In this document: one piece after another, positions 7,972 through 8,026 of the stretch
Layout of the letters: each line of letters begins with the position of its first letter
Numbering within the stretch: position 1 is the stretch's first letter
IMG/VR virus record: IMGVR_UViG_3300029846_000275
Strand: one strand, 5' to 3'
DNA length: 13,368 nt
Source: a virus
Taxonomy: Duplodnaviria; Heunggongvirae; Uroviricota; Caudoviricetes
The notes under the pieces: model-generated
What the model was told of the DNA's origin: nothing
Seen by the model: only the letters and a program-made list of their open reading frames with translations
Database searches by the model: none
Translations under genes and position numbers: made by a program

Positions 7972-8026
7972 TTTTTCCGCGACGCTCCCGCCCCGTGGCA
8001 GGGGCCCCCACCGGGAGGACCCGACA
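7972..8026 (-). other. cos-like cohesive-end site (cosN homologue plus adjacent conserved right-end block)
   Basis: Minus strand reads CGGGTCCTCCCGGTG...ACGGGGCGGGAGCGTCGCGG, against lambda right end/left end ...CGGGTCCTTTCCGGTG...TTACG|GGGCGGCGACCT|CGCGGG (recalled); located about 185 bp upstream of the Nu1-like start, as in lambda. Confidence 0.55.

Follow-up and report, generated by a model that had tools for sequence, protein, structure and literature searches.

In Escherichia coli K-12, the defective prophages Qin and DLP12 each carry an intact cos beside a small-terminase gene (cos-nohA and cos-nohB, respectively), the large terminase and head genes being gone (PMC3945230). The cos of Qin itself is a perfect lambda cos, with the cohesive end GGGCGGCGACCT and Nu1-type R sites, and is accompanied by a whole Nu1 homologue. 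Breaks at cos in lambda and DLP12 were proposed by De Paepe et al. to stimulate recombination, and 10 of 19 junctions were found next to cos (PMC3945230). In E. coli O157 Sakai, the terminase-defective prophage Sp4 is packaged, probably by the terminase of Sp14, and the cos sequences of the two prophages are identical (Asadulghani et al. 2009, PMC2669165).

We analysed a stretch of phage DNA of 13,368 nucleotides, referred to here as the window, in which a preliminary description had marked positions 7972-8026 as a cos-like site retained in a prophage that has lost its terminase and head genes. The site is an orphan cos and represents a new instance of the situation known from Qin, DLP12 and Sp4, with no new mechanism suggested; its significance is that of one more defective prophage retaining a cis-acting packaging site after losing the enzyme. 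As with Sp4 and Sp14, a terminase-defective lambdoid prophage has the same cos as a terminase-proficient relative. The element shares with K-12 Qin its insertion site (ydfJ) and the neighbours ynfT, ydfK, pinQ, tfaQ, DicF and dicB, but differs from it in having a DUF1441-type packaging module, another cohesive end and a small-terminase gene that is truncated and fused.

The cos site, lambda and the phages cdtI and Tritos

Read directly on the minus strand from 8029 to 7960, the window gives GGCTGTC, GGGTCCT, CCCGGTGGGGGCCCCTGCCACG, GGGCGGGAGCGT, CGCGG and AAAAAGGCTAGTTTTTG in succession. Positions 8022-7977 hold a GGGTCCT heptamer, a 22-nt spacer and a cosN-like core, ACG/GGGCGGGAGCGT/CGCGG, in which the slashes mark the presumed nicks. 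The two blocks that the preliminary description had likened to the lambda cosN core and the adjacent right-end block were both recovered on this strand (ACGGGGCGGGAGCGTCGCGG at 7996-7977 and CGGGTCCTCCCGGTG at 8023-8009), and the lambda strings quoted there for comparison are correct against J02459. The interval marked at the outset covers cosQ and cosN only, while the whole cos, including cosB, spans from about 8022 down to about 7810. The features of its first part are:

8016-8022, minus strand: cosQ heptamer GGGTCCT, starting 29 nt upstream of the presumed nick and identical to lambda cosQ
7977-7998, minus strand: cosN, the 22-bp partially symmetric nicking region CCACG/GGGCGGGAGCGT/CGCGG, identified by its lambda match, its dyad symmetry and the ends of phage records
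7982-7993, minus strand: putative 12-nt 5' cohesive end GGGCGGGAGCGT, with which the cdtI and Tritos records both begin

In an alignment with lambda, 16 of the 22 cosN positions are the same, and the 12-nt overhang differs from GGGCGGCGACCT at 4 of its 12 positions. The bases around both nicks are shared (ACG/GGGCGG ... T/CGCGG), and the identical cosQ heptamer lies 29 nt from the nick, compared with 30 nt in lambda. The symmetry of cosN, the lack of which would have counted against the preliminary description, is present: 12 of the 22 positions are dyad-symmetric, compared with 10 of 22 in lambda. The layout and polarity are also those of the lambda cos (cosQ, cosN and a cosB with R3-I1-R2-R1), down to an IHF consensus within cosB, a small-terminase ATG about 195 nt from the nick (at +197, compared with +191 for lambda Nu1) and a gpA-family large terminase in the intact relatives. 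By analogy with lambda, the overhang would be 12 nt long; the ends of two phage records, described next, put the presumed cleavage at 7994/7993.

The phages cdtI (AB285204), Tritos (OV696610) and HannyBb (PP925841) carry a cos at the same place, between a ybcW-like gene and a DUF1441 small-terminase gene. The GenBank records of cdtI and Tritos both start with GGGCGGGAGCGTCGCGG (GGGCGGGAGCGTCGCGGAAAAAGG) and both end in CTGCCACG. When 7700-8300 was compared with phage records by megablast, the cdtI record was found to begin, and the Tritos record to end, exactly at 7994/7993, these being the ends as deposited, which may have been either physically determined or placed by analogy with lambda. 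The cosQ-cosN segment of Tritos is identical to that of the window and its cosB is of the same type, with 2 differences in about 200 bases from the nick to the small-terminase ATG; HannyBb has the same cosB type and is 96% identical to the window over 601 bp. The window differs from these phages in that its downstream enzyme genes have been deleted. Tritos is a prophage of strain LF82 for which virions, and plaques on K-12, have been described (PMC9928086). The Tritos paper (PMC9928086) does not mention cos, and a literature search with the overhang sequence on either strand returned no phage paper; the explicit cohesive end GGGCGGGAGCGT of this common E. coli phage lineage, absent from the literature searched, is only a mildly new detail.

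A chance resemblance to the lambda cos in GC-rich DNA, devoid of meaning for packaging, might be argued from the match at just 16 of 22 cosN positions and from the failure of megablast to align the lambda cos core with the window. Nevertheless, we attribute the resemblance to homology because the ends of the cdtI and Tritos records fall exactly on 7994/7993. Moreover, the pattern GGGTCCT-N15-30-CGGGGCGG-N6-CGCGG has one match in the window and none in 200 dinucleotide-preserving shuffles; the cosQ heptamer is preserved, as are its spacing and the interval before the terminase gene; and more than 100 viral contigs have kept the site. A chance match was hence rejected on the shuffle test, the record ends and the conservation, and we regard its probability as next to negligible. 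The sequence comparisons instead make it very probable that the marked stretch is the genuine, sequence-intact cos of the cdtI/Tritos group of lambda-like E. coli phages.

Two minor features were noted upstream of the site. An 8-bp unit, CAGGCTGT, lies directly upstream of cosQ (8024-8039, minus strand) and is present in 2 copies in the window and 3 in Tritos (L003 1771-1794). Further away, about 220-280 bp upstream of cosN, the 63 bp at 8216-8278 share 93.7% identity with lambda 48028-48090 and with many lambda derivatives.

cosB and the terminase family

The preliminary description had also stated that the cosB side, between cosN and the remnant of the small-terminase gene, differs from lambda in a manner consistent with a different terminase specificity, and the comparison agrees with it. 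There is no alignment with lambda past about +17, and the cosB is unrelated to that of lambda. The small terminase belongs to DUF1441 and not to Phage_Nu1, with no significant similarity to lambda Nu1; in its intact form of 175 aa it matches PHROG 141, 'terminase small subunit'. A search of the small terminase against PDB sequences returned nothing significant and no structural link to Nu1. The marks of lambda specificity, i.e. the cohesive end GGGCGGCGACCT, Nu1-type R sites and a small terminase of the Nu1 family, are all absent from the locus. In the intact relatives, the gene after that of the DUF1441 small terminase encodes a large terminase with GpA_ATPase and GpA_nuclease domains, which is only 24% identical to lambda gpA; the phage lineage of cdtI, Tritos and HannyBb uses a gpA-family large terminase together with a DUF1441-family small terminase. 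The features recognised downstream of cosN are:

7960-7976, minus strand: AAAAAGGCTAGTTTTTG, immediately internal to cosN and almost unchanged between the two cosB types among 97 unique sequences
7918-7930, plus strand: match to the IHF consensus, TATCAATAAATTA (WATCAANNNNTTR), found by consensus scan, a candidate IHF site in cosB
7891-7900, minus strand: decamer TTTTCACCTG, copy 1, conserved within cosB type A and possibly bound by the small terminase
7814-7823, minus strand: decamer TTTTCACCTG, copy 2, just upstream of the small-terminase start and likewise conserved within cosB type A

The 97 unique sequences show little or no variation in cosQ and at positions +1 to +34, and divide beyond these into two cosB types. 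In the AAAAAGGCTAGTTTTTG block, 14 of the 17 columns are identical in all 97 sequences and the other three are at least 90% conserved. Each cosB type precedes its own DUF1441-family small terminase, the two proteins being 42% identical, and the arrangement mirrors that of lambda and phage 21, which share cosN and have different cosB sequences. The IHF consensus, for which 0.73 chance matches are expected in the whole window, has a TTGAT core that occurs at the same position in the second cosB type, and the match may act as an element similar to lambda I1. Conservation within the type suggests that the direct repeats of TTTTCACCTG could serve as binding sites for the small terminase.

The site is widespread. 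IMG/VR contains at least 119 contigs with its 21-nt core, and of 5426 complete E. coli genomes, 2702 match the 601-bp region. The cosQ heptamer is kept in almost all of 128 cos instances from phages and viral contigs, even where the flanks have diverged. At the end of one record (L010, mEp460_ev081, approximately 1840-2064), the cosB region contains a tandem duplication of about 100 bp, which may be an assembly artefact of terminal redundancy.

Decay of the prophage at the Qin site

The window comprises ydfJ' (1-1284), ynfT, ydfK, pinQ, tfaQ, an stf fragment, L and M, and further on DicF (12229-12280), dicB, a DicA-like repressor, Cro, YdaT and an O-like gene. Insertion in ydfJ together with ynfT, ydfK, pinQ, tfaQ, DicF and dicB identifies the element as Qin-type. 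Two matches to Rfam above the gathering score were obtained, namely IS009 at 3340-3538 (minus strand), inside the tfaQ gene region, and the DicF sRNA at 12229-12280 (plus strand), upstream of dicB. The genes on the upstream side of the cos are:

8362-8568, minus strand: ybcW-like small gene (phrog_657), which precedes cos in the intact relatives
8919-9938, minus strand: replication-initiator O-like gene (PHROG 391)
10370-11085: Cro-like gene (10370-10600, minus strand) and divergent DicA-like helix-turn-helix repressor gene (10678-11085, plus strand)

The iteron origin and the immunity switch that had been reported elsewhere in the element were both located, the former as five to six repeats of about 23 bp at 9425-9556 inside the O-like gene (core CATTTTGA) and the latter as the divergent DicA-like/Cro pair.

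The deletions were read from intact or less deleted relatives, i.e. the prophages of strains 98206 (L001 and L008), EC93 (L014) and 14EC033 (L009). Three deletions, designated (a), (b) and (c), were distinguished, and their traces in the window are:

7560-7797, minus strand: remnant of the DUF1441 small-terminase gene, its first 76-79 codons or so (partial Pfam DUF1441; blastn against the intact prophage of strain 98206)
7560-7574: 15-bp microhomology at the junction of deletion (a), where the blastn alignments to L008 and L001 overlap
5623-7574, minus strand: C-terminus of the tape-measure protein, about 650 residues, continuing the reading frame of the small-terminase remnant (Pfam TMP_2, TMP_4 and Tape_meas_lam_C)
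8770-8771: joint of deletion (c), which connects the truncated DUF977 gene to the spacer between ybcW and the DUF1398 gene, from comparison with relatives

Deletion (a), of about 10.4 kb, has joined the small-terminase gene, at about codon 76, to the tape-measure C-terminus in the same reading frame and has removed the small-terminase C-terminus, the large terminase, the portal, the protease/capsid and head-tail genes, the tail tube, G/T and the tape-measure N-terminus. Deletion (b) has removed K, I, J, lom and most of stf, and deletion (c) Q, the lysis, cold-shock and hokD genes and others. The loss of terminase and head genes asserted at the outset is therefore real: the large terminase and all head genes are gone, and the small terminase is cut to about 76 residues and fused. 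The microhomology suggests the route by which deletion (a) would have arisen, and since this 10.4-kb deletion did not reach cosN, ending about 420 bp away from it, the DNA substrate has remained unaltered. Rather than a selected device, the orphan cos is a passive leftover from the recent decay of a prophage at the Qin (ydfJ) site.

The chimeric ORF produced by deletion (a) (5623-7827, minus strand; 724-734 aa) joins the small-terminase N-terminus (about 76 aa) to the tape-measure C-terminus, and its start may be at 7797 or at the alternative upstream ATGs at 7809 and 7827, the last of which was created by a C-to-A change relative to cdtI and Tritos. It could be proposed that cos has been kept because the fusion protein, as a putative DNA binder, occupies cosB and acts as a decoy or defence against the packaging of incoming phages of the cdtI/Tritos type; the fusion is in frame, its approximately 76 N-terminal residues include a helix-turn-helix-like segment, VFKIAEAFGLHRDTVKKRL, and the additional ATG at 7827 would fit such a role. 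However, an in-frame result has a chance of one in three, DNA binding by DUF1441 is itself putative, and no promoter-like site was found upstream of the fusion, the sole match within 7600-8800 falling within the ybcW-like gene, at 8369-8342. The element has also lost the Q/late promoter region, and the junction is both rare (2 of 5426 complete genomes) and clonal. We consider such a function highly improbable and retain the interpretation of cos as a passive remnant.

Spread of the remnant and possible consequences in trans

The exact fusion protein, taken from the ATG at 7797, is present in 194 blocks of public assemblies, metagenomes included, and the versions starting at 7827 or 7809 are absent from public assembly records. 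One of these loci, L015, matches the whole window with no mismatches and one 6-nt gap and shows the complete element, which measures 15,797 bp between 11-bp att cores inside ydfJ and has int, xis and an exonuclease gene beyond the right end of the window (13368). The integrase gene of L015 (985-2043) is interrupted by a premature stop that follows residue 352 of 426; the missing C-terminus can still be read in the frame downstream, and the same 352-residue integrase was called in L020-L022. The catalytic residues of tyrosine recombinases lie in the C-terminal region. The chromosomal flanks of all fusion-bearing loci are 99.96-100% identical. The junction of deletion (a) was found in the 2 complete genomes mentioned above, and neither this junction nor the joint at 8770 was found in IMG/VR. 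The joint at 8770 also had no match among contigs representing one genome per species. Because the two complete genomes contain no second copy of cos or of the DUF1441 N-terminus, they have no resident helper, a difference from Sp4, which is nearly full-length and has a resident helper, whereas the window element measures about 15.8 kb and has a truncated integrase in near-identical loci.

The presence of int, xis, the immunity switch, the O-like gene with its iterons and cos between the att cores of L015 recalls the cos-type PICIs, of which EcCICFT073 is an example (PMC6739421); these are small elements with int, regulators, a replication module and cos and with no terminase. The remnant of about 15.8 kb could be a helper-dependent mobile satellite or mini-prophage that is excised and replicated and for which a cdtI/Tritos-type helper provides the packaging, perhaps of a trimer, whose 47.4 kb would be near the 46.4-47.0 kb of the helper genomes; its occurrence in 194 public assembly blocks, metagenomes too, and the known packaging of defective prophages by neighbouring ones (PMC2669165) are in line with such a lifestyle. 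Against this stand the loss from the L015 integrase of the region that holds the catalytic residues, flanks as nearly identical as clonal inheritance, and not transfer, would leave them, and the absence of both deletion junctions from IMG/VR. The DUF977 gene that follows O is truncated and the late promoter/Q region is gone, while useless tail-gene fragments (M, L, tape-measure', stf' and tfa) have been retained. No PICI-specific genes occur among the ORFs scanned in the window element; it differs from the PICIs as a recent deletion derivative of a prophage, with a prophage att (the ordinary Qin site), fragments of tail genes and 99-100% identity to intact prophages. The element does not show the properties that would define a phage satellite or PICI, namely an att of its own that prophages do not use, freedom from structural genes, dedicated hijacking genes and a functional integrase. 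We therefore rejected satellite or PICI identity on the integrase stop, the clonality of the flanks, the use of a prophage att and the survival of tail genes, and regard it as quite improbable. Nothing in the genomic comparisons points to selection for the site, to mobility of the element on its own or to horizontal spread, in keeping with a passive remnant.

In an intact phage, by analogy with lambda, the small terminase would bind cosB through the two TTTTCACCTG repeats and the candidate IHF site, and the large terminase would nick cosN at positions 12 nt apart to leave GGGCGGGAGCGT 5' overhangs, the minus-strand nick being at 7994/7993. DNA would then be reeled in from cosN toward the terminase genes, i.e. 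leftwards in the window, up to the next cosQ-cosN. An orphan cos could be cut in the same manner by a cdtI/Tritos-type terminase supplied in trans from a superinfecting or co-resident phage. Since cosB and terminase differ from those of lambda, lambda itself would not be expected to help; that role would require a phage of the cdtI/Tritos type and not lambda, 21 or phi80. The suggestion in the preliminary description that a helper with a compatible terminase might package DNA from this locus is plausible by analogy with Sp4 (PMC2669165).

Given the integrase stop in near-identical loci, cutting would most likely take place in situ on the chromosome and not on an excised replicon. It would produce a chromosomal double-strand break favouring recombination and marker rescue with the phage, and would also start unidirectional packaging toward ydfJ. 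Where a second cos in the same orientation is lacking, lambda-type packaging is completed inefficiently. With no such second cos available for efficient packaging here, a recombination-stimulating double-strand break is the best-supported of the possible consequences. Translocation leftwards would take in the tail-gene remnants, pinQ and ydfJ, followed by host DNA (ydfI ... marRAB), and in 14EC033 marRAB lies about 20 kb from cos. Orphan sites of this kind would matter mainly where incoming phages cut the chromosome, recombine with prophage remnants or start the packaging of host DNA.

Movement of the remnant between cells by cdtI/Tritos-type helpers, either through recombination or an integrase provided in trans, with multimers then being packaged, or through cos-started packaging of the chromosome in situ, appears unlikely. 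If it does occur, orphan cos sites at the Qin locus would be fixed start points for phage-driven transfer of host genes.

A different neighbourhood was seen in one metagenome contig (L019, ENA ERZ27229524 contig k119_69388, 7454-15712), in which the cos, the fusion and the tail remnant are followed by yciE, yciF, yciG and trpA-D, a Rac/trp-region neighbourhood in place of pinQ-ydfK-ydfJ. This arrangement suggests an inversion, recombination between prophages or a chimeric assembly.
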